The notes: generated by a model from the letters alone, not told the origin. 32,000 nt of DNA from Candidatus Jordarchaeales archaeon (GCA_038858525.1 JAWCFL010000001.1:169172-201171); one strand, 5' to 3'. Shown: positions 7,456 to 22,500, counted from the stretch's first letter. Made by a program: numbers and translations.

Positions 7456-7728
7456 ATGGCGTTAAGACCTGGAAGCATATGTGTTAAAACAGCTGGAAGA
7501 GAAGCGGGAAAGAAGTGTGTTGTGGTTGACATGCTGGATAAAAACTTTGTCTTAATAACCGGTCCGCCCAGCTTGAACGGTGTTAAGAGAAGAAGAGCGA
7601 ACATTAAACACTTAGAGGCAACAGGAGAGCATGTAGATATTCCGAAGGGGGCAGACGACGAACTCGTCTTAAAGAAGCTGGAAGAGGCGGGTTTAGCTGA
7701 GAAGCTGAAGGAGAAGATTAAAGTCTAA
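7456..7728 (+). CDS. rpl14e: 50S ribosomal protein L14e
   Basis: GSICVKTAGREAGKKCVVVD, FVLITGP and VKRRRANIKHLE motifs. Confidence 0.96.
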   Translation: MALRPGSICVKTAGREAGKKCVVVDMLDKNFVLITGPPSLNGVKRRRANIKHLEATGEHVDIPKGADDELVLKKLEEAGLAEKLKEKIKV

Positions 7729-7766
7729 TCTTCCCTTTAGCTTATTTTTTACTTTAAATTTAATTA

Positions 7767-8828
7767 ATGACGGTGATTTATGTGCCCAAGATCATTCCGC
7801 CGGAGGGTTTGAAAAGAAAGGTTATCGTTAAGAGTGAAGAGGAAACCAGTGAGGAGTACGGTAAACGTCCTAGCGAGAGGAGTGTGGAGGAGCTTTTAGA
7901 GGGGTGCTTCGTGAACATAGATAAGCCGGCAGGCCCGACCAGCCACGAAGTTTCTTCCTGGGTAAGGAGAATTTTGGGTTGCTCAAAAACTGGACATGCA
8001 GGGACACTAGAACCCCTTCAGACTTTGAAGGGGTGGTGAAATCCTAAGGTTACTGGGGTCTTGCCGGTTGCGGTAGGGTCTGCTACAAAGGTTATACAGG
8101 CCCTTCACCTTATAGGGAAAGAATACGTTTGCGTTATGAGGCTCCACGAGGATGTTGAGGGCGAAAGGATCAAGAAGATCTGTAAGGAGTTTACTGGGCC
8201 AATCTATCAGAGGCCGCCGATACGTTCCTCGGTGAAGCGAAGGCTTAGAGTAAGACGGATATATTACCTCGACGTGCTTGAGGTGGAAGGAAGAAATGTC
8301 CTGCTGAGAATAGGATGCGAGTCTGGGACGTACATAAGGAAGCTTTGCCACGACATAGGGGAGGCGTTAGGGTGCGGCGCTCACATGCGCGAGCTTAGAA
8401 GAACTCGAAGTGGACCTTTTACCGAGAGAAACATGGTAACGCTACACGACTTAAAGGACGCCTATGTTTTTTGGAAGGAGGAGGGTGATGAAGCTCCCAT
8501 CAGAAAAGTGTTATTACCAGTAGAGGAGGGAGTGCAGCACTTGCCCAAGTTTTTCGTGAGGGACTCAGCTGTTGACGCCATATGTCATGGAGCGGACTTA
8601 GCTGTTCCCGGCGTAGTCAAGCTTGAAGATGGAGTGGAGAAGGGTGATGTGGTCGCGATCTTGACTCTTAAGGGTGAACTAGTCGCTCTGGGCGTTGCCC
8701 TGATGACCGTAGAGGAAGTTGTAAGAGAAAAGCGGGGAATAGCGGTTAAAACGACAAGAGTAATAATGAGCAAAGGAACTTACCCAAAACTCTGGAAAAG
8801 CAAGAAGAATAGCGGTTCAATCACGTAG
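7767..8828 (+). CDS. cbf5: H/ACA pseudouridine synthase Cbf5, two exons (7767-8010, 8041-8828), 343 aa spliced
   Basis: [12 protein letters not shown] and GHAGTL upstream; [20 protein letters not shown] and the PUA domain downstream. Both ORF-track pieces share a frame and are separated by a 30-nt hairpin insertion containing TGA. Removing it gives GHAGTLDPKVTG. Confidence 0.96.
8011..8040 (+). other. 30-nt BHB intron in cbf5 mRNA
   Basis: Exon helix GGGA/UCCU; central helix CACU/GGUG; bulges AG|A and AA|A; intron stem ACCCCUUCA/UGAAGGGGU with loop GACUU. It splits the catalytic Asp codon (G|AT). Confidence 0.95.
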
Positions 8829-8900
8829 TTTTACATTCCCGAAAAATATAAAATACCACTAAACTTCTTCATTCCTAAAAAGGCGGGAGGTTAACAGAGG

Positions 8901-9206
8901 TTGAAGTACCCTAAAGTTAGGCGAACTTATTGTCCACGATGTAAAACACACACAGAACACTCAGTTAGCGTCTATAAGAAAGGTAAGGATAGGGCACTGG
9001 CCGCAGGAGCTAGGCGCTATGCAAGGAAGAAGAGGGGTTATGGAAGCCAGCCTAAGCTCTTCTATGTCTTATAGAAGAGGGGTAAGCCCGTTCAGAGGGA
9101 GTTCGCGAAGACCACTAAGAAGGTTAGCTTTAAGCTTAAATGCAAGGAGTGCGGTCATACGCTCCACACTAAAGGTATCCGCCTCAAAAAGGCTGAAGCA
9201 ATTTAA
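8901..9206 (+). CDS. rpl44e: 50S ribosomal protein L44e (eL42), two exons (8901-9055, 9086-9206), 91 aa spliced; absent from the ORF track
   Basis: Hand translation from TTG 8901: [20 protein letters not shown]...GYGSQPK[insertion with TAG][24 protein letters not shown]...AI*. Canonical position before S27e and aIF2alpha. Confidence 0.95.
9056..9085 (+). other. 30-nt BHB-type intron in rpl44e mRNA
   Basis: Central helix GCCU/GGGU (two G-U pairs); bulges AA|G and AA|G; stem CUCUUCUAU/AUAGAAGAG with loop GUCUU; outer exon helix imperfect. Contains an in-frame TAG. Excision gives CCT AAG CCC GTT (PKPV). Confidence 0.88.
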
Positions 9207-9222
9207 AGGGGGGATTTAAAAA

Positions 9223-9429
9223 TTGAGGAAAAAACGCGAGGTCATTCCGCAACCAAGAAGCCGCTTTTTGAAGGTTCAGTGTACTGACTGCGGCGCAGAA
9301 AACATAGTTTTTGATAGAGCAAGCACTACAGTTAAGTGCTATATTTGCGGGAAAGTTTTAGCTGAGCCGAGAGGAGGAAAGGCGCTCCTTCTAGTAAAAA
9401 AGGAGAACGTGATTCAAATTTTAAGTTGA
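9223..9429 (+). CDS. rps27e: 30S ribosomal protein S27e
   Basis: PRSRFLKVQCTDC and VKCYICG..LAEPRGGKA motifs. Confidence 0.96.
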   Translation: MRKKREVIPQPRSRFLKVQCTDCGAENIVFDRASTTVKCYICGKVLAEPRGGKALLLVKKENVIQILS

Positions 9430-9448
9430 AATAAGGGGTTGTAAAGAA

Positions 9449-10240
9449 TTGGTTAAGACGAGAAGGGAGTTTCCGGCAGAGGGAGACCTCGTGATAGCGA
9501 CTGTAACCAAAATAGCGAACCATGGAGCTTACGTAACATTAGACGAGTATGAAGGAAAAGAGGGGCTTGTCCACATTTCTGAGGTCTCCCAAAGCTGGGT
9601 TAGGAACATAAGGAACTTCCTTAAAGAGGGGCAAAAGGTCGTGGCGAAGGTCTTAAGGACGGAGCCGCGCAAAGGCTTCATAGATCTTTCTATTCGAAGG
9701 GTTACAGAGCAACAGAAAAGAGAGAAGGTACAAGAATGGAAGCGGGCGCAAAAAGCGGAGAACTTGCTTGATCTTGCCGCTAAAAAGCTCGGGAAAACCC
9801 TTGACGAAGCTTACGAGAAGGTAGGATGGCCACTCGAAGACAAATATGGAGAGATATACGCGGGTTTTGAGGAGGCCGCGGAAAAAGGCGAGCAGCCCCT
9901 CCTTGATGCTGGCGTCAGCGAAGAGTGGAGTAAAGTGATTACAGAGCTCGCTAAAGCGTACGTTGAGACGCCGAAGGTCAAAATAAAAGGCATCTTTGAG
10001 CTTACTTGTTTGAAGCGCGACGGAGTGGAAGCCATCAAAAAAGCACTGATTGCTGCGGAGAAAGTTGCAAATGGAGACGTAAATGTTGAGATCTATACTG
10101 TGGGGGCACCGCGCTACAGAATAGAGGTGACAGCGAAGGAGTATAAACAAGCTGAGAGCATAATGAAGGAAGCGGTTAATGCCGCATTAACTGTAATCAA
10201 GGAAGAGGGAGGAAGTGGAACGTTCACACGTGAAAAGTAG
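9449..10240 (+). CDS. eif2a: Translation initiation factor aIF-2 alpha
   Basis: S1 domain (GAYVTLDEY, GLVHISEV, IDLS) plus YTVGAPRYRI. Confidence 0.96.
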   Translation: MVKTRREFPAEGDLVIATVTKIANHGAYVTLDEYEGKEGLVHISEVSQSWVRNIRNFLKEGQKVVAKVLRTEPRKGFIDLSIRRVTEQQKREKVQEWKRAQKAENLLDLAAKKLGKTLDEAYEKVGWPLEDKYGEIYAGFEEAAEKGEQPLLDAGVSEEWSKVITELAKAYVETPKVKIKGIFELTCLKRDGVEAIKKALIAAEKVANGDVNVEIYTVGAPRYRIEVTAKEYKQAESIMKEAVNAALTVIKEEGGSGTFTREK

Positions 10241-10268
10241 CTATTTTCACACGTGAAAAGTAGCTATT
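10223..10268. repeat. Perfect 23-bp tandem duplication TTCACACGTGAAAAGTAGCTATT x2
   Basis: Copies at 10223-10245 and 10246-10268. Copy 1 carries the aIF2alpha stop and copy 2 carries the nop10 stop on the minus strand. Confidence 0.9.
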
Positions 10269-10437
10269 CTTTCCCTGCAAGCTCCTTCTTCAACCTTCGC
10301 CTTAAATCTCCAAAGCGGTCTTCTATTGAAAACTTTGGAGGATGCGGAACCTTTACCTCGCCCCCACAACGGGGACACGAGTCCTGCCTTAACGTATAAC
10401 TTCCACAAGAAACACATTTTCTAAGCAAGAAACCCAT
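10264..10437 (-). CDS. nop10: H/ACA RNP protein Nop10 (57 aa); absent from the ORF track
   Basis: Hand translation MGFLLRKCVSCGSYTLRQDSCPRCGGEVKVPHPPKFSIEDRFGDLRRRLKKELAGKE contains the YTL, CPxCG and PHPPKFS..D..G..R motifs. Confidence 0.93.
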   Translation of the reverse strand: MGFLLRKCVSCGSYTLRQDSCPRCGGEVKVPHPPKFSIEDRFGDLRRRLKKELAGKE

Positions 10438-10472
10438 TCCATAACCGCTCCCTTTTTACCGATCTTCCTCCT

Positions 10473-12944
10473 TTACGGGGGCGCGCTTACTTCAACATTT
10501 ATCTCTCTAGTGAATTCAGGTATAGATGTCTCTATTTTTAAAGGAACGCTTTTTCCACTTTCAAGACTCAAACCGCTATTGAAGGGTATACTAGCAGTCT
10601 CTCCAGGCCCGATGGAAACAGCAGAAATACTGCAGGATGTGCCGTTAACATATAGCTTCGTCACGTTGAAGGGGACTAATCCAGTATTACGGATTTCCAC
10701 TGTTCCACTTCCGTTAGTATAGATGCTCGCATTTACGATGTCCATGTTTGCGTCTAGTATCGAGTAATCAATCTTGTAGATTTTTACTAAGTGATTACTG
10801 GATATGAAGACGGGTTTAAAGTGATTCAGGACGCTAAATCCGTGCTTCCACCATGAGTACCATCCAGGCGGGCTCCTCGCTTCATCATAAGAGATTACGA
10901 GCGGATACTTATTCTGGTCCATGTAATTGTGGAGGGCATAATCCAGTATTAATTTACTATAAGAAGGATACACGTCTGGTGATGGGTCATGGTAGTAGAG
11001 GAGCTTGTAGAGGGTCATGTTAAAGAACTTGGGTGTGTAAATTGTGCCTGTTAGCGTTGGAGTGTAGTACTCGTATTCCCAAGGCGTGTAGAAGACGTCG
11101 AAGGAGATCTTAGCCATCCATATCCATTTTCCTTCGTCTCCGTGGAGGTTGGCATCGTTGTGTCCAAAGTAGACTAGAACATGTGTGGCGTTGAAATAAC
11201 GGAGGATCTCTAGGCTTTCTGTTTCGTTCGTGGTGGTTAGTGCTCGTCCGACGAGAGCTATTTGTGTGGTGTTGAGCGTGGCGTTGTCGACTACCGTTGT
11301 CTTGTTTCCTCTGACCATGATCCAGTACCCGTAATCCCACCAAGAAACCACTATAGCATCGGAGGGCAACTTGTTCTGCATGAAAATAAACGCTTCCTCC
11401 CAGTCGAAGTAGAAGTTCCCGTATCGGTCTCTAGGGACGAATTGCGGAGCGCCAGAGTAGACGGCTACAGTCATGCCGTGAGAGAATGAGAAAAACAGAA
11501 TGAGCCCTGTAATGGCTAAGACTACAGCGGCAGATTCTCTTCCCAAGATGCGCTTTACGATGACACGCCGCCTCTTAATGGGTATCCTTCGTTCTCCTAA
11601 CACTAGTTTTGAGAGAGGATCATAAATTGATGAAAGAGCGAACCCGGAGAGTAAGCACGCTACTGGAGCGAACATGACGATAAGACGAACCATGGAGGCA
11701 GCCATGTAAACAGTAGTTGCGCCTAAAATTATGAGGAGAAGGTCTTCGTTTCGCCTTCTTTGAAAGAGAAGATACATTCCTGCAGGAAACAGTATGACAG
11801 TTGCATGTAGGTCGTAGAAGAACATGCTCCATGATGTTGTAGCGTGCTCAGCGACACTTGACACTATGATCTCTTCTTCCCTGTAAAATGGGTTAATCAC
11901 TGAGAAGTAACGTCCACTAATTTGAATAAATGAGCGGATGCCAGATGATAAAGACAACGAAAAAATCGGGTTTATAGAATACGCGACAGCTACTCCTGTC
12001 ATGATCACGATCACTATGATAAATATCGTCACGGCGAGATTACGTTTGTTCTTGACGAAGACATGAAGTTTAGGTGCCTTGACAGCGAGTGTTTCAGAAA
12101 TGGAGGCGAGTGTAGGTTTAATGCGGGGATACGCTTCCCATGATATCAGGGCGAGTAAGACTAGCATTGCGAGGATGCAATTGCTTGAAATTATGTATTC
12201 ACTACCGTGGAATGGAACCCTCGTTCCTATAAATGCCCCTATCAAGATCGTGATGCTGTAGGTCATTAGCAGGTTTGTCGAGTACCTTTTCATTAGTATT
12301 AGGAGAATGACTGTGAGAGGATAAACGTATAGTAGGTAAATGGCGGCACCCCAGCTTGCTATGAAGCCGCCGAGGGCTAAACCAGCTATAACGGCTGAGG
12401 GGATAGATGACCTCTTCATGGATCTTATGAAGAAAAAGAGGGAGAGCAGAAAGAAGAACAAGCCAACACACTCGTTATCAACTAGACCTGCGATCGTTCG
12501 TTCTATTGCTCCCGGCAAGAACGACAGCAAAAATGAGGAGATTAGGCCAGCCTTGTCATCCAGCACCTCGCGTCCGAGAAAGAAGAGCACGACGCATGAT
12601 GCTGCTCCCATTATGGCGGGGAGAAAGTAGCACACCATGTGTATGTTGACGTTAAACCCTATAGATCTTAGCAAGAAAAAGAGGGTTGCAGCTGTGAACG
12701 GCACGCCGGGAAGGTAACTTCTGGACATGTCTAAGCCATAGGGGTACCACATCATCGGGTTATACCATCCAAACCACACGGAGTAACCGTAAATACTTAT
12801 GAAGGCGGCGTTATAGTACTGTATCGTTGAGTCATAATCCGATATATATGGAGGATACATGAAAAAGGGGTAAAGCCTTAACAAAAAGGCTAGCAGAGTG
12901 ATTAGTGATACGCTCAGAACGAGAAGGAGGTTCCGCCTGTCCAC
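10473..12944 (-). CDS. aglB: Oligosaccharyltransferase AglB/STT3 with C-terminal Ig-like domain
   Basis: Multi-TM N-terminus, DNE, SVAEH, WWDYG, DNATLN and a DxxKxxxM (DK) motif. The start may lie upstream at CTG 13004. Confidence 0.95.
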   Translation of the reverse strand: MDRRNLLLVLSVSLITLLAFLLRLYPFFMYPPYISDYDSTIQYYNAAFISIYGYSVWFGWYNPMMWYPYGLDMSRSYLPGVPFTAATLFFLLRSIGFNVNIHMVCYFLPAIMGAASCVVLFFLGREVLDDKAGLISSFLLSFLPGAIERTIAGLVDNECVGLFFFLLSLFFFIRSMKRSSIPSAVIAGLALGGFIASWGAAIYLLYVYPLTVILLILMKRYSTNLLMTYSITILIGAFIGTRVPFHGSEYIISSNCILAMLVLLALISWEAYPRIKPTLASISETLAVKAPKLHVFVKNKRNLAVTIFIIVIVIMTGVAVAYSINPIFSLSLSSGIRSFIQISGRYFSVINPFYREEEIIVSSVAEHATTSWSMFFYDLHATVILFPAGMYLLFQRRRNEDLLLIILGATTVYMAASMVRLIVMFAPVACLLSGFALSSIYDPLSKLVLGERRIPIKRRRVIVKRILGRESAAVVLAITGLILFFSFSHGMTVAVYSGAPQFVPRDRYGNFYFDWEEAFIFMQNKLPSDAIVVSWWDYGYWIMVRGNKTTVVDNATLNTTQIALVGRALTTTNETESLEILRYFNATHVLVYFGHNDANLHGDEGKWIWMAKISFDVFYTPWEYEYYTPTLTGTIYTPKFFNMTLYKLLYYHDPSPDVYPSYSKLILDYALHNYMDQNKYPLVISYDEARSPPGWYSWWKHGFSVLNHFKPVFISSNHLVKIYKIDYSILDANMDIVNASIYTNGSGTVEIRNTGLVPFNVTKLYVNGTSCSISAVSIGPGETASIPFNSGLSLESGKSVPLKIETSIPEFTREINVEVSAPP

Positions 12945-13139
12945 TCTAACTTTAGCAGCGTAGAAAAGCTCGCTTATAAGGGATGATAATCTTTTTCTCG
13001 CCAGTTGCGCCGCCTCCCCTATATGTCCCTTTACAACCTCCTTTATCTCACACTGCTCTTTTAAAAATTATCTCTCTTTCTATTAGACGAAAGACTATGT
13101 AGCCTGAAATCTAAGGCATGCAATACTAAATAGATGATA

Positions 13140-13153
13140 AGGTTTATAAAAGG
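13140..13153 (+). promoter_or_regulatory. Probable TATA box for rps3ae
   Basis: AGGTTTATAAAAGG about 55 nt upstream of the ATG, in the divergent aglB/rps3ae spacer. Confidence 0.5.
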
Positions 13154-13206
13154 ATGGGGTGTAGTCCCCTTATCGTGACTCACACCAAGAACCTGAAGGG
13201 GATTGG

Positions 13207-13827
13207 ATGAGTAGAGAGCGCGTGAAGGATTCTTGGAGCGCGAAAAAGTGGTTTACGGTTCTCGCACCGACATACTTTGGAAATGTCGAGATAGGTTTAA
13301 CGCCTGCTGACAGCCCGGAGAAGGTGATAGGCAGGGTAATGGAGGCCACTCTTTATGACATTACTGGCGACTTCTCTCTGATCCACGTTAAGCTCTACTT
13401 TAGGATAATAGACGTTTCAGGAGAAGTGGCTCAGACGGAGTTCTATGGCCACGAGTTCACTAGGGACTACTTGAAGAGCCTTGTGAGGAGAGGCACTAGT
13501 AAGGTTGACGGAATATTTGACGTTGTAACTAAGGACGGGCGAGCTTTACGCGTGTACCCTGTAGCTTTCACGATTAACAGGATTAAAACCAGTCAGGAAA
13601 AGATTATCAGAAACGTGATGGGAGAGGTTGTGGAGAAAAAAGCGGAACAGTTAAACTACGGCGAATATGCTCAGGAAGTTGTGCTTGGAAAAATTGCTTC
13701 CGAGATATACAACTTAGCTAGGAAAATAGTTCCTTTAAGGAAGTGCGAGGTTTGGAAGACGAAGCCCATTAAAGTACGGGCAAAAACGGTGGAGACGCTT
13801 AGAGCGGAGACACAAGCTACTGCTTGA
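13207..13827 (+). CDS. rps3ae: 30S ribosomal protein S3Ae (eS1)
   Basis: KDSWSAKKWFTVLAP, GRVMEATLYDITGD, RDYLKSLVRRGTSKVD and VPLRKCEVWK motifs. Confidence 0.96.
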   Translation: MSRERVKDSWSAKKWFTVLAPTYFGNVEIGLTPADSPEKVIGRVMEATLYDITGDFSLIHVKLYFRIIDVSGEVAQTEFYGHEFTRDYLKSLVRRGTSKVDGIFDVVTKDGRALRVYPVAFTINRIKTSQEKIIRNVMGEVVEKKAEQLNYGEYAQEVVLGKIASEIYNLARKIVPLRKCEVWKTKPIKVRAKTVETLRAETQATA

Positions 13828-13864
13828 ACATTTATTTTTGATGCTTATAGTGGAGGGGACCTAT

Positions 13865-14005
13865 GTGAGCACGGGAAAAAAATGTGTTAAATGTGGTGCT
13901 GCTCAAGTTGAAGTTTTGGTTAAACAGCCTATGTCTTCAGGTGTTGAATACACGTACAAGTGCTTGGTCTGCCATCATACGTGGAAGGAAAAGAAGCGCT
14001 TTTAG
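13865..14005 (+). CDS. 46-aa stand-alone zinc-ribbon protein resembling the TFS/TFIIS C-terminal ribbon; absent from the ORF track
   Basis: SD GGAGGGG then GTG: MSTGKKCVKCGAAQVEVLVKQPMSSGVEYTYKCLVCHHTWKEKKRF, with CxxC...CxxC spacing and a YxCxxCxHTW end. Confidence 0.75.
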   Translation: MSTGKKCVKCGAAQVEVLVKQPMSSGVEYTYKCLVCHHTWKEKKRF

Positions 14006-14253
14006 GTTTTTCCGGATAGCGTTACGACGTCCCCTACAATCTTCATACTTGCAAGTATATCATCCAGCGTCGACAGTAAAGTGCTGATCTTGCCGTTGTA
14101 CTCGAGAAGCATGATTAACCTATTTTCGTCTGATTTCATTTCAAACTTCATGTTTTTAGGCAGAGGCGTGTTATCGGGCGACAACGCTCTCAATGTTATG
14201 GCGGCCTCGGAGGGGGAGGAAAATTCCACTTCAATAATTATTTTAGCCATCAT
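14002..14253 (-). CDS. pcc1: KEOPS subunit Pcc1
   Basis: ALSPDN and LLSTLDDIL pattern, 83 aa; downstream of S15-DHH as in the conserved archaeal cluster. Confidence 0.82.
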   Translation of the reverse strand: MMAKIIIEVEFSSPSEAAITLRALSPDNTPLPKNMKFEMKSDENRLIMLLEYNGKISTLLSTLDDILASMKIVGDVVTLSGKT

Positions 14254-14271
14254 TCGCCCACTTCTCCATCA

Positions 14272-15699
14272 CTACTTACTGCTAAGTTCCGCGTTTAGGT
14301 GCTCAATGAACTCTTCCTCCCTACCAGCGGGAATGTATGCTCCAGCAGCCAAGTCATGCCCACCAGCGACGAAGTTTAACCCCATTTCATTTATGACGTA
14401 CCTCATTAGTTCACCCAAGTTTACCTCTTTCTTAACTTCTGATCCTAAGCGAGCAGAGACTTTAACTGCTGCTTCTTCTTCCGAGTATGCGAACCCGACA
14501 ATCACTTTGTCTCGATACGATTTTGATGAAGAAAGAATTGAAGTTACAGTTCCAATCATCTTGTCGTCAATATAGCGTTCTCCGTTGAACCAGCAGATGT
14601 CGCCTTTAACGTTCACCTTGCCTTTCCCAAGCCATTCCATGTAATCTGCTAGCTTCGCTCGATACTCACTAGCAACTTTTGCAACTTCTCCATAGACATT
14701 TCGGTCCCCCATGCAGATAGCTAACCCCAAGCTTGTTTTCCCTGTTCGCCCGCAAGCATTAAGGAGGAAGGCGAACTCCCTAGCGTCCCTTGTTGGTGTT
14801 CCAAGTGGCTCCCTAGTTAGAACGTAAACTGTCCCAATAATGCTCTGCGCCTCATCAGCGCTCATTCCACCTGGCCCAAGCATGTACTTGACAAGCTCCG
14901 ATACGAGCTTCGACTTTTCCTGTTGTGAAAGTTCAGACAGAGTTCTCCACCGGTCACCAGACTTCAACGGAATCTTAACTCTCTCTACAAGGAACTTCAC
15001 ACAGGCAGCATGATTACCGGACAGCCCGGGTATGAAGGGCTCCATAGTGTACTCGAGAGCGACAGGTATGGGTCTCGTCTCCCGCCCGAAGAACATTAGG
15101 TCCTTAACTTCTTCTAGAACACCCAACTCTATTGCTTCTCTAACTATCTCAGCGTTTAAGCCTGTCAGGCTTCGCCCTTCACCTTTATCCTGGCGGTCAC
15201 CAAGCGCACCGATAACGGCGAGGGTAGATAGGTCCCGATTCGCGTCATTGACCTCCTTGGATACCAAGTAAGCCATTCCAGCACCACTAATTTCGGCTCC
15301 CCCGTCTAAGCCGAAGAGGTGAGGATTAATTTGCATGAAGCTTTCTTTATCATTCTCTGGGGGATGATGATCTATGATCACCACGTTCTCCCTTAATACC
15401 TCGTTTATGAGGCTCAACTGGCCGCTACCTAGATCTGTGAACACGAATACTCTCTGAGTTTTTGGAAGAGATTTTAAGACGCGCTCGCTAAGCTGGTGAA
15501 CTATTCTAGCGTGAAACTTGGCGTCAATCCTTCTAAGCGTCTTTAACATTATGCTGGCCGCCGCTAATCCGTCGGCATCTAGATGGGAAACCACCTGGAA
15601 AACGTGTGAACGTGCTCTTTCGAGTATGAATTCGGCAATGCTTCGAGCATGACTAATAAGTTGAGAGGAAGGCAACGCTTCGAGGTCACCTTTTCTCAT
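14272..15699 (-). CDS. DHH/DHHA1 family RecJ-like nuclease
   Basis: SHLDADG, FTDLGSG, IIDHH, ISGAG, GALGD and GGHDLAAGA motifs. Confidence 0.92.
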
Positions 15700-16154
15700 T
15701 GCCTTACGAGTAAAGCTACCTTTTCGGGGTCATACTTCCAGTCTGGCGGCAGAACATGGCATTTCTTATAGTACTTCACCAACCTATGAATTTTTGACTC
15801 TGTGAGCTGGAGTCCTCTTCTCGAGTGAAGGTCTTTCCTGTGCTCTTCGAGATGTCTCCTGATTCTTAAAGCTCGCCGAATTAAGTTTGTGAGGTCCTCC
15901 GGGAGGGGGGACGTTAATCCATGCTCTTTCATGATCTGCGTAATCTTTTTACCCACTATTGGCTTAACAAGCGGGACGCCATGTTGGTCTCTTAGTATTA
16001 TTCCGATCATTGATGGAGGGTAGCCGCTCCTAGCTAGCTCAACCACTTTATCGACTACCCATTCTGGGGTTTTGTCGAACCATTCTGGCGGTTTCTTTAC
16101 CGGAGGACGCTTAGATGAAGATTTCCTCTTTTTCCTCGCGTGCATTCTCGCCAT
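15696..16154 (-). CDS. rps15: 30S ribosomal protein S15 (uS15/S13e)
   Basis: [34 protein letters not shown] and [11 protein letters not shown] motifs. Confidence 0.97.
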
Positions 16155-16207
16155 AATAGAACCCTTCTCTCAGGATAATGCTAGGGGGCTGATAAGAAAC
16201 TTGATGT

Positions 16208-16816
16208 TTAAATAATTTTCGAGGATGTTAGCCATTCAGCAAGCTTCCTGAGGGCTCTCGCCCTATGTGACAGCTTATTCTTTTCCCTAACGTCGAGCTC
16301 GGCAAAGCTCCTTCCATCACCCTCCTCAGGTATAAATATAGGGTCGAAACCAAATCCACGTTCTCCCTTGACGGCGTGAGATATGAAGCCTGAAGCCTGA
16401 CCTTTAAACACCAGCATCTCCTTGCCATCTGTGAACGCCACAACCGAAACAAAAACAGCTCTCCTGTTATCGACGCCATCCATAAGTTTTAGCACGCCTT
16501 CATTGCCTATTTTGCTGAAGACATAGGAGGAATAAGGTCCTGGGAACCCGTTGAGCGCCTCTATGAAGAGGCCGGCGTCCTCAACGAAAAAAGGGCATCT
16601 TGGATTCGCCTCCCGCATCAGCCAAGCCAGACTAATCCTAGCGATCTCTTCCAAGCTTTCCGACTGGACCTCGAGGCGCTTCACGTCCCACTGTTCAACA
16701 TTTAACCCGTACTCTGAAAAAACGATCTCAGCTTCTTGAAGCTTGTGCCTGTTACTTGTGGCGAAGAGGACATGTTTCACCTTTCCCAGTAGCGCCCCCT
16801 CCTTTCGATCTCCCAC
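16208..16816 (-). CDS. rdgB: XTP/dITP diphosphatase (RdgB/HAM1)
   Basis: FATSNRHK, VEDAGL, GFPGPYS, GFGFDPIF and SHRARAL motifs. Confidence 0.95.
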   Translation of the reverse strand: MGDRKEGALLGKVKHVLFATSNRHKLQEAEIVFSEYGLNVEQWDVKRLEVQSESLEEIARISLAWLMREANPRCPFFVEDAGLFIEALNGFPGPYSSYVFSKIGNEGVLKLMDGVDNRRAVFVSVVAFTDGKEMLVFKGQASGFISHAVKGERGFGFDPIFIPEEGDGRSFAELDVREKNKLSHRARALRKLAEWLTSSKII

Positions 16817-17403
16817 ATTTTATCTATAACTTCATTTGCCCCCTCAAAGGCGTCCCTATAACCTTGAAGAACAGCGTTGAATCCTTCTTCGAAAACGTCG
16901 TAATGACTGCTTTCCATTGCCCGCTTCATCAAGTGCAGGTCAACTCCCAAGTCCTCAACGTTCCTCGAAAAGTCTCCAAGCCCAAAATCGATGAAAAAAA
17001 TCTTCCCGTTACTAACAATCATGTTTGAAGTTGTCAGGTCTCCGTGTACTATGCCCTCCCTGTGAAGCCGCCCTATTAATTCGCCCACCTCACGCAACAA
17101 CCTGACAAGTTCTTCGCGCGGCAAACCTCCTTCCTTTATGAGGTCACTTAAAGTTCTTCCATCAATGTAATCCATAATTATAGAGGCGGATTCTAAGTCG
17201 ACGAGGTAAACTGTGGGCGCCGGGACGCCGGCTCTCTTTGCGCTATGAAGCAAGCGCGCCTCACGAATAACTCTCTGTCTTCTTAAGCTGTCATCCAGTT
17301 CCTTGATCCTGTAAAGCTTAGGCTTACGCTCCTTAACGACAACTCTTCGCCCAAAAACATGGCTAAGGAGAAGATGAGCTTCAGCCCCCTTCTTGATCAT
17401 CAC
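16777..17403 (-). CDS. bud32: KEOPS kinase/ATPase Bud32
   Basis: GAEA, VVVKER, HGDLTTSN and IDFGL motifs. Confidence 0.95.
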   Translation of the reverse strand: MMIKKGAEAHLLLSHVFGRRVVVKERKPKLYRIKELDDSLRRQRVIREARLLHSAKRAGVPAPTVYLVDLESASIIMDYIDGRTLSDLIKEGGLPREELVRLLREVGELIGRLHREGIVHGDLTTSNMIVSNGKIFFIDFGLGDFSRNVEDLGVDLHLMKRAMESSHYDVFEEGFNAVLQGYRDAFEGANEVIDKMWEIERRGRYWER

Positions 17404-17409
17404 CGTATC

Positions 17410-18440
17410 TCACCTCTCACTCTCAACCCATGATACTTGAACCTCGTCAAGCCTCCACCTCGGCTTCACGTAGCTTTCCTCCACCCTTAGGATCCTTCCA
17501 CTAACATACTCTAATATTCCTGTCCAGGCGATCATTGCTCCATTATCTCCTGCCAACTGCTGGGGGACCACGTGGAAGGAGGCGCCATGCTCCTCAGCTA
17601 TCACTCTGATCATTTCTTGCAACCTCCTGTTTCTGCCGACACCTCCCGTCAGTAGAACGTCACCTTTACGCGTGTGCGCCAGAGCCCTCTCAGTCACTTC
17701 AGCCAGCATGGAGAAGCAGACTTCCTGAACGCTGTAGCACAGATCTTCAACTTTGCAACTACCAATCTTGCCAACCGCAGCGGTGTAAACCCCAGAATAG
17801 GAGAGGTCCATTCCCTTGACGACATATGGCAGCGGAATAAAAGTGCTTCCTTTACTCGCCAGCTCTTCGACCTTTGGCCCGCCAGGATGCTTTAAACCCA
17901 GCGCCCTAGCGAGCATGTCAAGCATGTTTCCGATGGCCAAGTCAAGCGTCTCCCCAAAGACACGGTACCTGCCTTTCTCGTAAGCTGCAACCAGAGTGTT
18001 TCCTCCAGAAACATACAACGTTAAGGGGTCTTCAACGTTCTCGGTGAGACGCCCAATTTCTATGTGGGCTAAACAGTGATTAACGCCCACTAAGGGAACG
18101 TTTAACGCCAGTGCAAGCGCTCTGGCAGCCGTCGCCACCGTTCTCAGGCAAGGGCCTTTGGGGGCTTCGCCAACCCCGGCCCTTGAGAGAACGCGACCAA
18201 GTTAACCTCACTTATTTTGATTCCGGCTTCGCTTATAGCTGAGGTGATCGCCTGCTTAACCGCGTTCGAGTGGTGCTGCGCGGCTTCCCTAGGGTGGATC
18301 CCGCCCTCAGCGGGCACATACTCGTCTCTGATGTTCGCTAGAATTTCTCCTTCACTACTTGCCACTCCTACACCTAAAGTGTGAGCTGTTCCTTCGAGCC
18401 CCATGCATAGCAGGCGGCGGCCGCCCAGTGCCTTCCTCAC
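17410..18440 (-). CDS. kae1: t6A synthase Kae1/TsaD, two exons (18440-18172, 18157-17410), 338 aa spliced
   Basis: GLEGTAHT, GGIHP and VAFSQGPGL in one frame; GPCLRTVATAAR, VNHCLAH, VSGGNT, GETLD and DNGAMIA in another. Removing 14 nt joins them. The GTG 18440 start is tentative. Confidence 0.94.
18158..18171 (-). other. 14-nt canonical BHB intron in kae1 mRNA
   Basis: Exon helix CAAGGGCC/GGCCCUUG (8 bp); central helix GGGG/CCCC; bulges UU|G and AA|A; mini stem GC-GAA-GC. Excision gives GGG TTA GGC CCT TGC (GLGPC) and removes the frameshift. Confidence 0.93.
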
Positions 18441-18459
18441 AAGTCTCAGTGTAGCGCCA

Positions 18460-18660
18460 TCAGCCGCCTTCATCCTCCTTATCCTCATCCTCTCTTTTCT
18501 TTTCCTTAGCTTCCCTAACATACTCCGTGTATCCACACTTGCCGCAGGTGTAACGGCGCCAGTGCTCCGCCATGAAGACGCCTGGCCCACACCTGGGACA
18601 GAACTTTTTGGCGCGAACCAGTTGGCCATTGACGATCTTGTAGTATTTGCCAACGCTCAC
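18460..18660 (-). CDS. rps27ae: 30S ribosomal protein S27ae (eS31), no ubiquitin fusion
   Basis: [15 protein letters not shown] and [12 protein letters not shown] motifs. Confidence 0.96.
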
Positions 18661-18682
18661 TTAACATCCCTCCCTTTCGCTC

Positions 18683-18985
18683 TTAAGCTGCACCTTTACT
18701 TTCATCGCCGAGATTACGATTAATGAGGTAATCTGGCTCTATTTGGAGGGCAACATCCTTAGAGCTGTAAACTCGAGCCACCCCCTTAGACTGGCCCACA
18801 CCGTACTCGGTCTCTATTTTTCTTATGAACACTTGGTCTAGGGAGACATTGAGGAGGGCGGCGAGCTTGCGCCTGACTTCCACTCTGTTCGGCGTGCCCT
18901 CGCCTTCATGCTCAACCACGAACTCTACTTCTTCCCTGTTAAAGAAAGGGTTTTTACTTCGAGAAACAAGTTTCACTTCCATCAC
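18683..18985 (-). CDS. rps24e: 30S ribosomal protein S24e
   Basis: NPFFNREEV, GTPNR, IETEYG and GVARVY motifs. Confidence 0.95.
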   Translation of the reverse strand: MMEVKLVSRSKNPFFNREEVEFVVEHEGEGTPNRVEVRRKLAALLNVSLDQVFIRKIETEYGVGQSKGVARVYSSKDVALQIEPDYLINRNLGDESKGAA

Positions 18986-19514
18986 GTGAAGCCTCCCGCA
19001 TTTCTTTAATAATGCTCATAACGCGTTTTTTCGCATCCTCATCAGCCTCTAGAACTACTAATCCTTGACCAGGCTGACCATAAATTATTATCGTTTCCTC
19101 TGGGGCGAGTAGCGCGGCAGGTATTGTAAGCAGGTCTTCTTCTCCATCAACCTCCACGCACACTCTGCCAGCCCTCGAGTATGCATCCTCGAAAACTCTC
19201 CACGCCTCCTTTTTTATCGTCCCTGGAGGGTTTCTCAGATTAAGCTTCTCCCACCCATCCAAATTTAATTTAAGCCCGATGGTCCTAAGCGTTTTCCCAT
19301 CAACCACAATAATATCCGGCTCGACGCCCACCTCAAGAAGCGTCTTCGCCACCACGTCGCCGACCGCGACCACCCTCACGCTTCCCCCCCTCTCCTCGAG
19401 CATGCGCTTAACCCTCAAGCTGCTTTCAGGGTGCCGCCCCTCGACCAGCACACCAAAAGGCGCCTTAAGCCGTTCCCGTAACTTCAAAGGCAACTCTAAG
19501 TCGTAGTCCAGCAA
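18954..19514 (-). CDS. DUF359 GTP-dependent dephospho-CoA kinase
   Basis: VGDVV, VVDGKTLR, NPPGTI, VDGEEDLL and IYGQPGQG motifs; conserved spt4-DUF359-S24e order. Confidence 0.92.
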   Translation of the reverse strand: MLDYDLELPLKLRERLKAPFGVLVEGRHPESSLRVKRMLEERGGSVRVVAVGDVVAKTLLEVGVEPDIIVVDGKTLRTIGLKLNLDGWEKLNLRNPPGTIKKEAWRVFEDAYSRAGRVCVEVDGEEDLLTIPAALLAPEETIIIYGQPGQGLVVLEADEDAKKRVMSIIKEMREASRDGSETCFSK

Positions 19515-19520
19515 CCAGCG

Positions 19521-19706
19521 TCACCTAACTTTCAACGCGTACCTACCCTTCTTCTTGATGTTCAGCTTCTTAGCTATCTGTGACCCTTCAGGGTCAAAAA
19601 CGACTAGTAGTCCCCCATAATCATCAGATAGGGAGGACGTTTTGCACTCAGGGCACATCTGGTCTCTAACTAGAAGTTTACAGGTACGGCAGGCCCGCTC
19701 CCTCAA
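19521..19706 (-). CDS. spt4: Transcription elongation factor Spt4 (RpoE'')
   Basis: ACRTC, CPEC, DPEGSQIA and GRYALKVR motifs. Confidence 0.95.
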   Translation of the reverse strand: MRERACRTCKLLVRDQMCPECKTSSLSDDYGGLLVVFDPEGSQIAKKLNIKKKGRYALKVR

Positions 19707-20287
19707 GTTCCCTTAACCTCCTCATCACTTCTCTTTCCACCACTTTTTTCAGCTTCCTCTTTTATCCACTCTAGCTTTCCCAAGAATGGTTGACGCATAG
19801 TTAACCCTATCCGTCCCCCTCTAGCCCCCCCGGTCATAGAGACAGAGACAACTCTCGCCCTCACAACATCGTTCTGCATTAGGCGCTTCCCTGTCTCCTT
19901 CCCCGTCAATATCCCAGCTTTGCCGTCGTAATCGATGAAGTCATCCATGAGCTGAGAAATGTGGATGAGCCCCTCAATAGGCCCGAGACGCACGAAGACG
20001 CCGAAGTCAACGATCGCCGTCACAACACCCTCAACAACCTCGTTCTGCTCAGGCTTAAAGGTGAGAACATGGAAGGTCGCCTCATGGAATGCTCCTCCAT
20101 CACCCGGAATAAGCCTCCCGACACCAACATCCTCCACGCCGACAACGCAAAGCACAATCCCCAGCTCAGGATCCATAACTTTCTCATACTCCTGCCTAAG
20201 CATTTCGAGAGCAACCTTCTCGACAGGCTCCCCAAACCTGTCAGGAGGAATCCTGAGCACATCCTTAAGTGTGACAAGTTTATACAC
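19703..20287 (-). CDS. rpoE1: RNA polymerase subunit E' (Rpo7)
   Basis: LRIPPDRFG, GDGGAFH, FGVFVRLGPIEGLIHISQLMDD and IGLTMRQPFLGK motifs. Confidence 0.96.
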   Translation of the reverse strand: MYKLVTLKDVLRIPPDRFGEPVEKVALEMLRQEYEKVMDPELGIVLCVVGVEDVGVGRLIPGDGGAFHEATFHVLTFKPEQNEVVEGVVTAIVDFGVFVRLGPIEGLIHISQLMDDFIDYDGKAGILTGKETGKRLMQNDVVRARVVSVSMTGGARGGRIGLTMRQPFLGKLEWIKEEAEKSGGKRSDEEVKGT

Positions 20288-20387
20288 GCAACGACACCTC
20301 CAAGGAAACCAGCAGACTCAACAAGCGCAGCACCAAACCAAAACGCAAGAAAACACTTGGTCAGCCTCACGACTAACATTCATCACC

Positions 20388-20801
20388 TTATAAAATTTCC
20401 CCATCAAGAAACAAACGTCTTCCCTGCCTTAGAAAGACCACAGGCACACCAACCCGCCTGAGACGCCTACGAAGCTTGGCGTCATTAGTCGCCACAACAC
20501 AACCCTCCCTCTTAGCATAATCGAAGACCGCGTCATCTACGCCCCCACCCTCCACCCCCGATGGGCAAACCCTAAACCCTCTTACCTCAACGAGAGACAA
20601 GGCAGCCCTTGCCAGTTTCCCTCTCCTCCCACCCTTCTCAGCCAGCTTCATCAACTCATCAATAACCCGATCCAAAACAATAACCTCATAGCGCCCACCA
20701 ATAACCCGACCAAGCTCTGAGAAGACATCCCATCCCAACAGAAACGGAGCAATCAAAAAGTTACTGTCAACTAAAACCCTAACATATGATCCCCCACCCA
20801 A
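20388..20801 (-). CDS. PIN-domain ribonuclease (Fcf1/Utp24-like)
   Basis: VLVDSNFL, VIDEL, VDD and VATND.KLRRRL motifs; conserved position after aIF2gamma. Confidence 0.9.
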   Translation of the reverse strand: MGGGSYVRVLVDSNFLIAPFLLGWDVFSELGRVIGGRYEVIVLDRVIDELMKLAEKGGRRGKLARAALSLVEVRGFRVCPSGVEGGGVDDAVFDYAKREGCVVATNDAKLRRRLRRVGVPVVFLRQGRRLFLDGEIL

Positions 20802-22093
20802 TAAGCCTCCACCTTCCCGAAACCATCCTGCTCACAGCCACCCTCTGACCATCCTCAGCACACACAGGACGCCGCAGCGCCACTTCAACCTCCCCACTCC
20901 TAATCGACGATACAACGCCCACTGTCACCGCCGACCCAACATTCAGCATTAAAGCCTCATTAACACGCACATTCTCCACCCTGGAAAGCTCCTCGCTTCC
21001 CACAACCCTATCCATCAGGTGAAGCTCAATACACAAATCCTCACGCACGGGAGGAAGGGTCCCGGGAGAACCTACAACGTTCCCAATCAAACCATCAGCC
21101 TTCGTCAAAGAGGGGTCCAGCCGCGTACCAACACCAATCAACCCACCTGGCAAAGCTTCCTCAAGCCACACGTCACCAGCATGCAAACTTACAACGTCAG
21201 CATAAATAGGCTCAAACTTACCTTTAACAGCAACTCCCGGACGAATTTCAACCTCATCCCCAACCCTAACTCTACCTTGAATAATGGTTCCACCAATAAC
21301 GCCCCCAACAAGATCCTCAGGCCTAGTTCCCGGCTTATTCACATCAAATGACCTCGCCACATACATCCTCAAAGGCTTACCCGGGTCTCTAACCGGATTA
21401 GGAATATGCTCTTCCATGAACTGCAACAAAGCATCCAAATTAACACCAAAAACAGCCGAAACAGGAACAATAGGAGCATCCTCAGCAAAACTACCACCAA
21501 TAAACCTCTTAATCTGTCTAAAGTTTTCTAATGCCTTCTCCCTAGAAACAAGCTCAACCTTATTCTGAACAATAACAACATTCCTCACACCAATAATCTC
21601 CAAAGCCGCAAAGTGCTCTCTAGTCTGCGGCTGAGGGCAAAACTCATTAGCAGCAACAACAAAAACACAACCATCCATCAAAGACGCACCACTAATCATG
21701 GTCGCCATTAACCGCTCATGACCAGGACTATCCACAAAGCTGACCTTCCTCACAAACTCAGCTTCACTCCCACACTTAGGGCACTTCCACCCCCCAGCCA
21801 TAGCCAAAGTAAAGTAGCAGTCAGGAGGCGGGCAAGATGGACACTTCAAAATAATAGCATCAGCATAACCCAACTTAATCGTAATACCACGACGCTTCTC
21901 CTCACTATGACGATCAGTCCACACACCAGCCAAAGCCTGCACAAGCGTGGTTCTTGGCCCGCGAGAGAGACACTCCCAACGGATTGCCATGATCCACGTC
22001 TCTAGCACCAGCTGATCAACAGCTGGCGAGTCCAGCTGTTCCCACAGAAACTAAAGCCTGCGTACTCATGGCCTTCTTATAAGCTTCGTCCAA
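20779..22093 (-). CDS. eif2g: Translation initiation factor aIF-2 gamma, three exons (22093-22030, 21999-21984, 21952-20779), 417 aa spliced
   Basis: TDRHSEEKRRGITIKLGY, FVDSPGHE, CPQPQTREH and NKVE motifs. The P-loop missing from the ORF track is rebuilt as GTAGHVDHGKTTLVQAL after removing two insertions. TTG 22093 follows an SD GGGGG. Confidence 0.95.
21953..21983 (-). other. 31-nt BHB intron 2 of aIF2gamma mRNA
   Basis: Central helix UGGC/GCCA; bulges AA|U and AG|A; stem CCGU-U-GGGAG/CUCUC-GCGG with loop UGUCU; outer helix CGUGG/CCACG. It splits the P-loop Lys codon (AA|A). Confidence 0.92.
22000..22029 (-). other. 30-nt BHB-type intron 1 of aIF2gamma mRNA
   Basis: Central helix CUGG/CUAG; bulges AC|U and AG|A; stem CGCCAGCUG/CAGCUGGUG with loop UUGAU; in-frame TGA; outer exon helix weak. 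It splits the His codon (C|AC) of GHVDHGK. Confidence 0.9.
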
Positions 22094-22136
22094 ACAAGAA
22101 CCCCCAAGAGCTTTTAGGAAAGTCTTCACGAAAGCG

Positions 22137-22152
22137 TTATTTAAAAGTTTCC
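22137..22152 (-). promoter_or_regulatory. Probable BRE-TATA promoter of the aIF2gamma operon
   Basis: The minus strand reads GGAAAC-TTTTAAATAA about 44 nt upstream of the TTG start. Confidence 0.6.
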
Positions 22153-22500
22153 AGCGAAAGGATGAGGAAGGGTAGATGGTGGCGATACGAACAGTCAGAG
22201 CGGCGGGTGTTTGTTTATGTGTTTTGGCGGAGGCGGGATGTCGGGGGTTCTAAAAAATATGTCTATTTGTGTGATGAGAAACTTGGGGATGAGGAGCTTG
22301 CTGATTAGGGGTTTCGTTACCGGGAGGAGAGAGTTATTGTGATGAGCTAGGTCTTTACGACGGGGCCACCCAGCGTTTACCCGTAAACCTTCTGGGAGCT
22401 GGGAAGCTTGGTTGGAGCTTCTCAGTTTGCGTTCCGCTTCTTGGATGCAAGGGAGCGTCGATGAATGTGGTGTTAATTCTATAAGCTTGCCCCCCCTCTT

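Follow-up and report, generated by a model that had tools for sequence, protein, structure and literature searches.

We examined a 32,000-nucleotide (nt) stretch of the genome of a Candidatus Jordarchaeales archaeon (GCA_038858525.1 JAWCFL010000001.1:169172-201171; hereafter the window), a run of archaeal information-processing genes by Pfam assignment, in which four essential genes (cbf5, rpl44e, kae1, and aIF2gamma) are interrupted by five short inserts that can be read in the sequence. These inserts are probably ordinary, vertically inherited archaeal introns of the bulge-helix-bulge (BHB), or tRNA, type that reside in pre-mRNAs, are cut by a two-subunit EndA endonuclease, and are joined by the RtcB ligase. 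An earlier note on this DNA had stressed that the introns share one identical layout and always sit inside codons of conserved motifs; the claim proves more ordinary than proposed, as the identical layout is a mode rather than a rule and the intron phase is random.

All five introns follow a common plan. On the exon side, a tetramer (4 nt) and two bulge bases are followed by one intron bulge base; on the intron side, a hairpin (h′) is followed by a tetramer complementary to that of the exon and by two bulge bases, and this second bulge is completed by the first base of the following exon. This is the canonical archaeal BHB geometry. The cbf5 intron (8011-8040, + strand; 30 nt, arranged as 1+9+5+9+4+2) lies in phase 1 of an Asp codon (GAU, cut between G and AU), with the exon tetramer CACU facing GGUG in the central helix, the loop GACUU, and a stem of 9-10 base pairs (bp). 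The rpl44e intron (9056-9085, +) has the same 30-nt arrangement of 1+9+5+9+4+2 and interrupts a Lys codon (AAG, cut between AA and G) in phase 2, with GCCU facing GGGU and the loop GUCUU, in a relaxed motif without an outer exon helix. Two introns lie in aIF2gamma: the first (aIF2gamma-1; 22000-22029, - strand), again 30 nt long and arranged as 1+9+5+9+4+2, is in phase 1 of the His codon (CAC, cut between C and AC) of the GHVDHGKT motif, with CUGG facing CUAG and the loop UUGAU, while the second (aIF2gamma-2; 21953-21983, -) is 31 nt long and in phase 2 of the P-loop Lys codon (AAA, cut between AA and A), with UGGC facing GCCA, the loop UGUCU, and one bulged U in the stem. The kae1 mini-intron (18158-18171, -) measures 14 nt (1+7+4+2) and is in phase 2 of the Leu codon (UUA, cut between UU and A) of the GPGLGP motif, with GGGG facing CCCC and an outer exon helix of 8 bp. 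Sequence, folding, and tabulation agree with the earlier note on the three identical 30-nt layouts and the 31-nt fourth intron, and all four loops and all five exon tetramers, each complementary to the 3′ segment of its intron, are as it had described them. A sixth insertion that it had placed in a Trp codon was not found; the sole BHB-like element at Trp codons lies in aglB (11317-11343, -) and was rejected as an intron because the WWDYGYW motif itself is encoded there and the alignment with the orthologue shows no gap.

Removal of the inserts by the BHB rule restores a motif in every gene (interrupted residues in brackets): GTL[D]PKVTG in cbf5, GSQP[K]PVQ in rpl44e, GPG[L]GPC in kae1, and G[H]VDHG[K]TT in aIF2gamma. 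The spliced translations are gap-free when aligned to intron-free orthologues from two reference genomes (G011 and G021). In cbf5, splicing would join exon 1 (7767-8010, +), whose last base is the G of the catalytic Asp codon according to the open reading frame, the sequence, and the alignment to the G011 orthologue, to exon 2 (8041-8828, +), placed by the spliced alignment; in rpl44e, exon 1 (8901-9055, +; Pfam Ribosomal_L44) and exon 2 (9086-9206, +) would give a 93-amino-acid product, which aligns end to end. Exon 1 of kae1 (18172-18404, -; start codon approximate) matches Pfam TsaD positions 2-63 and exon 2 (17410-18157, -) matches positions 70-264. The aIF2gamma gene is divided into a 40-nt exon 1 (22030-22069, -), placed by sequence and spliced alignment, a 16-nt micro-exon between the two introns (21984-21999, -), and exon 3 (20779-21952, -), which carries the Pfam domains GTP_EFTU, GTP_EFTU_D2, and eIF2_C. 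In dnaG and a hypD-like gene elsewhere in the genome, the best splice found by a structure-blind search coincided with the BHB positions. All five of the genome's in-frame 30-nt introns (8011-8040, 9056-9085, and 22000-22029 in the window; C2:68773-68802 and C2:6357-6386 outside it) contain an in-frame stop, a feature with a chance expectation of about 0.4 per intron and one that the discovery route demanded for two of the five; an unspliced mRNA would therefore yield a truncated protein and not a 10-residue insertion.

The four window loci were then compared across 30 related genomes, with several of the orthologous intron lengths counted by hand from the sequences. The cbf5 intron is found between the same G and AU throughout the order (11 genomes) as well as in two other families of the phylum, and RNAalifold applied to 13 genomes gave a consensus hBHBh′ structure in which 8 of 14 pairs show compensatory double changes. 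The rpl44e intron is present in both families of the order (f1, to which the window belongs, and f2) with a recognisably homologous stem and compensatory changes in 3 of 11 pairs by RNAalifold, and it has been precisely lost in one genome (G006). The kae1 site is occupied in both families and also in another order, and the gatE intron, outside the window, is present in 11 of 11 genomes of the order; in rpl44e, gatE, and pcm the stems differ between families with the pairing kept. The aIF2gamma introns are distributed more narrowly: aIF2gamma-2 occurs in f1 only, and aIF2gamma-1 only in the window's genome (30 nt) and in G002 (33 nt), being absent from G003, G004, and f2. Two of the three gene-bearing genomes of the genus carry aIF2gamma-1, which was probably lost precisely from G003. 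In G027, a member of a distant family, a separate intron of 29 nt (by hand count) lies in the same aIF2gamma Lys codon with an offset of 1 base. Distant families also share interrupted codons at the same base, namely the cbf5 Asp codon (G028 and G021) and the kae1 Leu codon (G022 and G011). All three recurrently occupied codons, that of aIF2gamma included, point either to very old introns with many losses or to repeated insertion at favoured sites.

Sequence similarity among the introns gives no sign of a common source. The best pairwise local score among the 13 verified introns of the genome (see below) was 8, with best pairs scoring 7-8; shuffled sets reached a maximum of 8.6 on average, with 10 at the 95th percentile. 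The stems are therefore unrelated in sequence, as had been suggested from the window, and the companion proposal that this is not one recently spread element also holds, given a similarity no higher than that of shuffled copies and orthologues that point to vertical descent with compensatory stem changes. Jointly with the BHB reading, we consider it likely that the introns are independent of one another, mostly old, and vertically inherited, with compensatory drift of their stems, occasional gains, and precise losses.

The BHB layout could be written for 13 of 13 verified introns, with all four central-helix pairs and both 3-nt bulges. Minimum free energy (MFE) folding returned an exact hBHBh′ motif for cbf5 and a relaxed BHB for rpl44e and aIF2gamma-2. 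The intron helix h′ is present in 12 of the 13 (2-10 bp) and the exon-exon helix h is either lacking or no longer than 2 bp in 8 of the 13, which therefore represent relaxed HBh′ motifs. Motifs of this kind require a broad-specificity EndA, and in Crenarchaeota the two-subunit EndA is the arrangement tied to relaxed-motif cleavage. The genome encodes two EndA paralogues (PF01974; 191 and 198 amino acids), one with Tyr, His, and Lys at the catalytic positions and the other without the His, as well as a single RtcB ligase gene. The same two-paralogue EndA pattern occurs in 44 of 60 Asgard genomes (preprint 10.64898/2026.10.13.758758). Splicing of the window introns is predicted from these sequence features. 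The genome is 2.09 Mb in size and 93% complete, and ARAGORN detected 11 tRNA genes in it and the Rfam tRNA model 7, a low count that fits the interruption of nearly all tRNA genes, often more than once; a T-arm-seeded splice-and-test search resolved only 6 tRNA genes, and these unreliably. Separately, the bulges are A-rich, with the 5′ bulge beginning with A in 12 of 13 introns and the 3′ bulge consisting of A(A/G) plus a purine in 11 of 13, which may reflect a sequence preference of the host EndA or a proto-splice-site requirement.

The genome-wide set was assembled by tblastn against the whole G011 genome and 0.8 Mb of G021, and an insert was kept only if its removal produced a seamless protein alignment. 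This gave 13 homology-verified mRNA introns, five in the window and eight outside it (pcm, ppsA, and gatE among them), with lengths of 14, 16, 20, 29, 30 (five introns), 31 (three introns), and 50 nt. The median is 30 nt; 9 of the 13 fall at 29-31 nt and 5 at exactly 30 nt. As 30 nt is the genome-wide mode, the occurrence of exactly this length in three of the five window introns is unremarkable, with an estimated probability of about 0.14 if some 28% of the genome's introns are 30 nt long.

Orthologous copies, traced for cbf5, rpl44e, and kae1 in 10-12 related genomes, show how soft this preference is. The cbf5 intron measures 30, 31, 29, 35, and 27 nt in f1, 31-32 nt in f2, and 35 and 41 nt elsewhere; rpl44e measures 30, 30, 29, 29, and 29 nt in f1 and 33 nt in f2; pcm measures 31, 29, 32, 31, and 25 nt in f1 and 32 nt in f2; and gatE measures 30, 29, 35, 31, and 30 nt in f1 and 30 nt in six genomes of f2, so that it is 30 nt long in 8 of 11 genomes and 29, 31, or 35 nt in the others. 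The kae1 intron is 13-14 nt in f1, 28-29 nt in f2, and 28-30 nt in another order. The remaining sites are absent from f2, with aIF2gamma-1 at 30 and 33 nt and aIF2gamma-2 at 31, 29, 29, and 30 nt in f1, and aEF2 at 29 nt in three genomes of the genus only. Even within one genus the lengths run 30/31/29/35 for cbf5, 30/29/35/31 for gatE, and 31/29/32/31 for pcm. Overall, 56 of the 67 copies counted at 8 orthologous sites fall into the range of 28-33 nt, a hand count of related copies that serves as a description and not as a test. The 30-nt layout is therefore the mode of a soft size band and not an exact length rule. Of the length or structure constraint suggested earlier, the preference for a size and a structure stands (29-31 nt in 9 of 13 introns, 28-33 nt in 56 of 67 copies), whereas the exact 30 nt does not, with 27-35 nt seen in sister species; likewise, the genome-wide tabulation that the earlier note called for shows lengths that cluster at 29-31 nt yet span 14-50 nt.

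The phases of the 13 introns are distributed 4/5/4 (chi-square p=0.93), and introns in phase 0 are found in ppsA, gatE, a PurM-like gene, and a NuoD-like gene. The claim that insertions always occur in phase 1 or 2 within codons is thus true of the five window introns but not of the genome, and the absence of phase 0 from the window is a small-sample effect. Site conservation was measured as the identity in an 11-residue window at the junction, ranked within the alignment of the intron's own gene. For all 13 introns the mean percentile is 0.76 (Wilcoxon p=0.0013); the eight that lie outside the window average 0.72 (Wilcoxon p=0.03), and the five window introns range from 0.57 to 0.94. Introns lean towards conserved stretches, with some ascertainment bias; the placement in conserved motifs is borne out by the window motifs and by above-average conservation genome-wide, but it was partly built in, as the window five were noticed for breaking famous motifs. 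It is conceivable, if rather doubtful, that both preferences are purely an effect of detection, motif-breaking introns being what a reader notices. Uniform phases once more introns were considered (4/5/4, p=0.93) fit such an effect, as does the fact that the window introns have higher percentiles than the eight others on average, and homology-based finding also favours alignable regions. However, conservation still exceeds the gene median for those eight introns, which came to light through homology or structure, and lineages that are far apart have introns at the same sites: Crenarchaeota and Asgard share the cbf5 Asp codon, two orders share the kae1 Leu codon, and the aIF2gamma Lys codon is occupied twice.

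The tRNA-type intron reading also suggests how size and site could be explained together. The last six exon bases would form one strand of the 4-bp central helix and two bulge bases, and cutting after the second base of each bulge would restore the codon exactly. An outer exon-exon helix would rarely be available from coding stretches, and the intron would instead supply a self-folding hairpin of 8-10 bp stacked on the central helix, such as the eight introns with little or no outer helix carry; it may be because coding exons seldom provide the outer helix that the hairpin is carried by the intron. The arithmetic of 1 + (a stem of 8-10 bp and a loop of 3-8 nt) + 4 + 2 would then give about 29-31 nt, with longer introns trimmed by small deletions. 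Where the outer exon helix is strong, the hairpin could shrink, as may have happened in kae1 (14 nt), the hypD-like gene (16 nt), and ppsA (20 nt); for kae1 the path would run from about 29 nt in two other families to 13-14 nt in f1, where only a 2-bp stem remains beside a strong exon helix. In conserved codons, the exon's share of the splice signal would stay constant and inexact loss would be forbidden, although detection may account for part of this pattern. The three short introns (14, 16, and 20 nt) combine GC-rich central helices with outer helices of 8, 4, and 6 bp, and the outer helix in the 29-31 nt class is 0-4 bp (Mann-Whitney p=0.008, a post hoc comparison of 3 with 9 introns). The median length of intervening sequences in Asgard tRNAs is 22-23 nt (preprint 10.64898/2026.10.13.758758), a value taken from the preprint and not from this genome, and their shorter length fits because the tRNA body supplies flanking helices. 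This trade-off of hairpin for helix is the most likely cause of the length near 30 nt, although it is not strict.

Several observations weigh against this account. None of the five junctions is crossed by any record in one metatranscriptome assembly and three raw-read RNA runs searched over 7700-22200. The MFE structure of aIF2gamma-1 is a competing exon-intron helix, and that of kae1 is a 6-bp GGGGUU/AGCCCC helix with one 3′ bulge of 4 nt; in both introns the BHB is read from the primary sequence rather than from the MFE fold. The verified set contains only 13 introns, obtained through one and a third reference genomes, and introns shared with the references are missed by this approach; the conservation bias may be inflated, as introns are easier to detect in alignable regions. 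The trade-off itself is post hoc and compares 3 with 9 introns, and the overall rank correlation is weak (Spearman -0.37, p=0.21). Both helices are carried by cbf5 and by the 50-nt intron, and the kae1 intron of f2 is still 29 nt long despite a 7-bp outer helix. Finally, the 28-33 nt band could equally reflect how introns are born.

This last point leads to an alternative that we regard as unlikely, in which introns arise as hairpin cassettes of a standard size, about 30 nt, put in place by a dedicated generator, the size band being a birth mark and not an equilibrium. One form envisaged for it, to which we give similarly little credence, is hairpin insertion with a 6-7 nt target-site duplication, in which self-complementary first four bases would create a self-made BHB. 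Such a generator would account for the concentration of lengths (5 of 13 introns at exactly 30 nt, 9 of 13 at 29-31 nt), for the independent G027 intron in the aIF2gamma Lys codon being again 29 nt by hand count, and for the 29-33 nt of genus-restricted and presumably young introns (aEF2, 29 nt in three genomes; aIF2gamma-1, 30 and 33 nt); moreover, the exon tetramers of aIF2gamma-1, aEF2, and dnaG are nearly or fully self-complementary, with the terminal 7-8 bases of exon and intron alike. The tetramer is non-palindromic in 10 of 13 introns, however, so the duplication model cannot be general. The introns also have no common sequence, sister species differ by 1-5 nt in intron length, and sizes of 14-50 nt are tolerated; for Asgard tRNA introns, copying, mobile elements, and reverse transcription were all negative as arrival routes in preprint 10.64898/2026.10.13.758758. 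If a generator did exist, its introns would be exactly removable by the host's tRNA-splicing enzymes from their first day and could colonise even the catalytic codons of genes that are essential; this would account for the band of sizes and for codons having been hit more than once. That the inserts are instead translated insertions, pseudogene lesions, or assembly errors is highly improbable: the five junctions are crossed by none of the RNA records, which leaves some room for it, but the inserts interrupt catalytic or P-loop residues in genes that are essential and single-copy, carry an in-frame stop in all five in-frame 30-nt cases and otherwise shift the frame, and recur at the same sites, with compensatory stem changes, in up to 13 independently assembled genomes.

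The closest known system to these BHB introns is the cbf5 intron of Crenarchaeota, which in Desulfurococcales and Sulfolobales splits the catalytic Asp codon after its first base and measures 16-44 bp (PMC2738675). It occupies the same position between G and AU as the window intron at 8010/8011 (Watanabe 2002; Yokobori 2009, PMC2738675) and is similarly short, at 16-44 bp compared with 27-41 nt in the genomes compared here. It also forms a BHB or relaxed BHB with half of the central helix from the exon and a variable internal region, has also been gained and lost among lineages, and is also paired with a hetero-oligomeric EndA. The differences are that it belongs to another phylum, that its splicing has been shown experimentally whereas ours is predicted, and that in the present host many protein genes besides cbf5 are interrupted, the verified introns numbering at least 13.

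The tRNA genes of the Asgard classes Jordiarchaeia and Atabeyarchaeia have been described as heavily interrupted (Valentin-Alvarado 2024, PMC11291895; preprint 10.64898/2026.10.13.758758). The tRNA introns described there resemble the mRNA introns in lineage type, BHB motif, and presumably enzymes, and they, too, share no sequence families, have been gained repeatedly, and occupy some positions that were hit more than once; they differ in lying in tRNA genes and in their median of 22-23 nt, compared with a median of 30 nt and a longer hairpin here. Cross-host families comprise 1.5% of Asgard tRNA introns and 28% of those in Thermoproteales (preprint 10.64898/2026.10.13.758758), and the Asgard figure agrees with the lack of a single spreading element among the mRNA introns. 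The transposing tRNA introns of Thermoproteales, as far as the preprint relates them from Sugahara 2008 and Fujishima 2010, are likewise short and of the BHB type, occupy non-canonical positions, and belong to an archaeal lineage that is rich in introns and has an (alpha-beta)2 EndA; by the same account, 28% belong to families with at least 80% identity across hosts, in contrast to the introns studied here, whose similarity does not exceed that of shuffles. Inteins offer an analogy of position only: they too lie in conserved critical motifs of essential proteins, where only exact removal gives a working product, but their removal takes place in the protein and relies on an activity that they themselves encode, whereas these introns are non-coding RNA of 14-50 nt removed by host enzymes. 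The suggestion of the earlier note that introns may persist where only precise loss is tolerated is compatible with, though not put to the proof by, the two precise losses observed (rpl44e in G006 and, probably, aIF2gamma-1 in G003). A literature search that included PMC11291895 and preprint 10.64898/2026.10.13.758758 found no paper on mRNA introns in these Asgard classes. Published spliced archaeal mRNA introns come from essentially one gene, cbf5, whereas introns of this type interrupt at least 13 protein genes in the genome studied here.

The genes affected include kae1, a ribosomal protein, aEF2 in its G3 motif, and aIF2gamma in its P-loop, which is interrupted twice, 16 nt apart. Gene callers will wrongly annotate such essential genes as broken or truncated, and the expression of core translation factors would depend on tRNA-splicing enzymes. 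The lineage provides a natural series for the minimal splice signal, from 13 to 41 nt, in which hairpin length is apparently traded against exon helix, and it bears on how introns settle and persist in the protein genes of a lineage that presumably belongs to the Asgard archaea, which among known archaea are the nearest relatives of eukaryotes.

Structure-only scans of the genome for BHB hairpins showed no excess over a mirror-geometry control (53 compared with 41 at L=30), and open-frame and dicodon coding filters left thousands of gene-boundary hits in both geometries, so structure alone cannot list the introns. Homology verification alone separated the geometries, confirming 4 of 27 sites of the real geometry and 0 of 19 of the mirror geometry. 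Good BHB hairpins also occur inside true coding sequence, at the WWDYGYW motif of aglB and at the GAVGxP motif of an isocitrate/isopropylmalate dehydrogenase-like gene, and structure alone therefore over-calls introns in this genome. Among rejected candidates, a 30-nt element on contig C9 falls where the reference has residues, a 24-nt hairpin on C39 (-) encodes the GAVGxP motif, and a 30-nt element on C3 is on the wrong strand, while sites marked by split high-scoring segment pairs on C10, C12, and C31 and at C21:5917 and C1:115284 have no BHB.

Some further features of the window were noted. In aIF2gamma, the exon parts of the two splice motifs almost abut, and both motifs would have to fold within about 80 nt of the RNA that encodes the P-loop. 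Around aIF2gamma-1 (21988-22041, -), the 7-mer CAGCUGG at the end of exon 1 recurs in the 3′ arm of the intron hairpin, and in the MFE structure the exon pairs with the 5′ arm of the hairpin in place of the BHB; the G002 orthologue is without the CAGCUGG repeat, and its tetramer is the palindrome CCGG. Between aIF2alpha and nop10, at about 10223-10270 (+), a 23-nt stretch is tandemly duplicated, and an RNA-derived contig from a public sediment metatranscriptome is without one copy of the repeat at 10223, a difference that looks like strain variation in an intergenic spacer. In bud32 (17053-17378, -), one RNA-derived contig joins 17053 to 17378 and skips 324 bases in frame; with a shorter side of only 24 letters, this contig may come from another organism or be a chimera.

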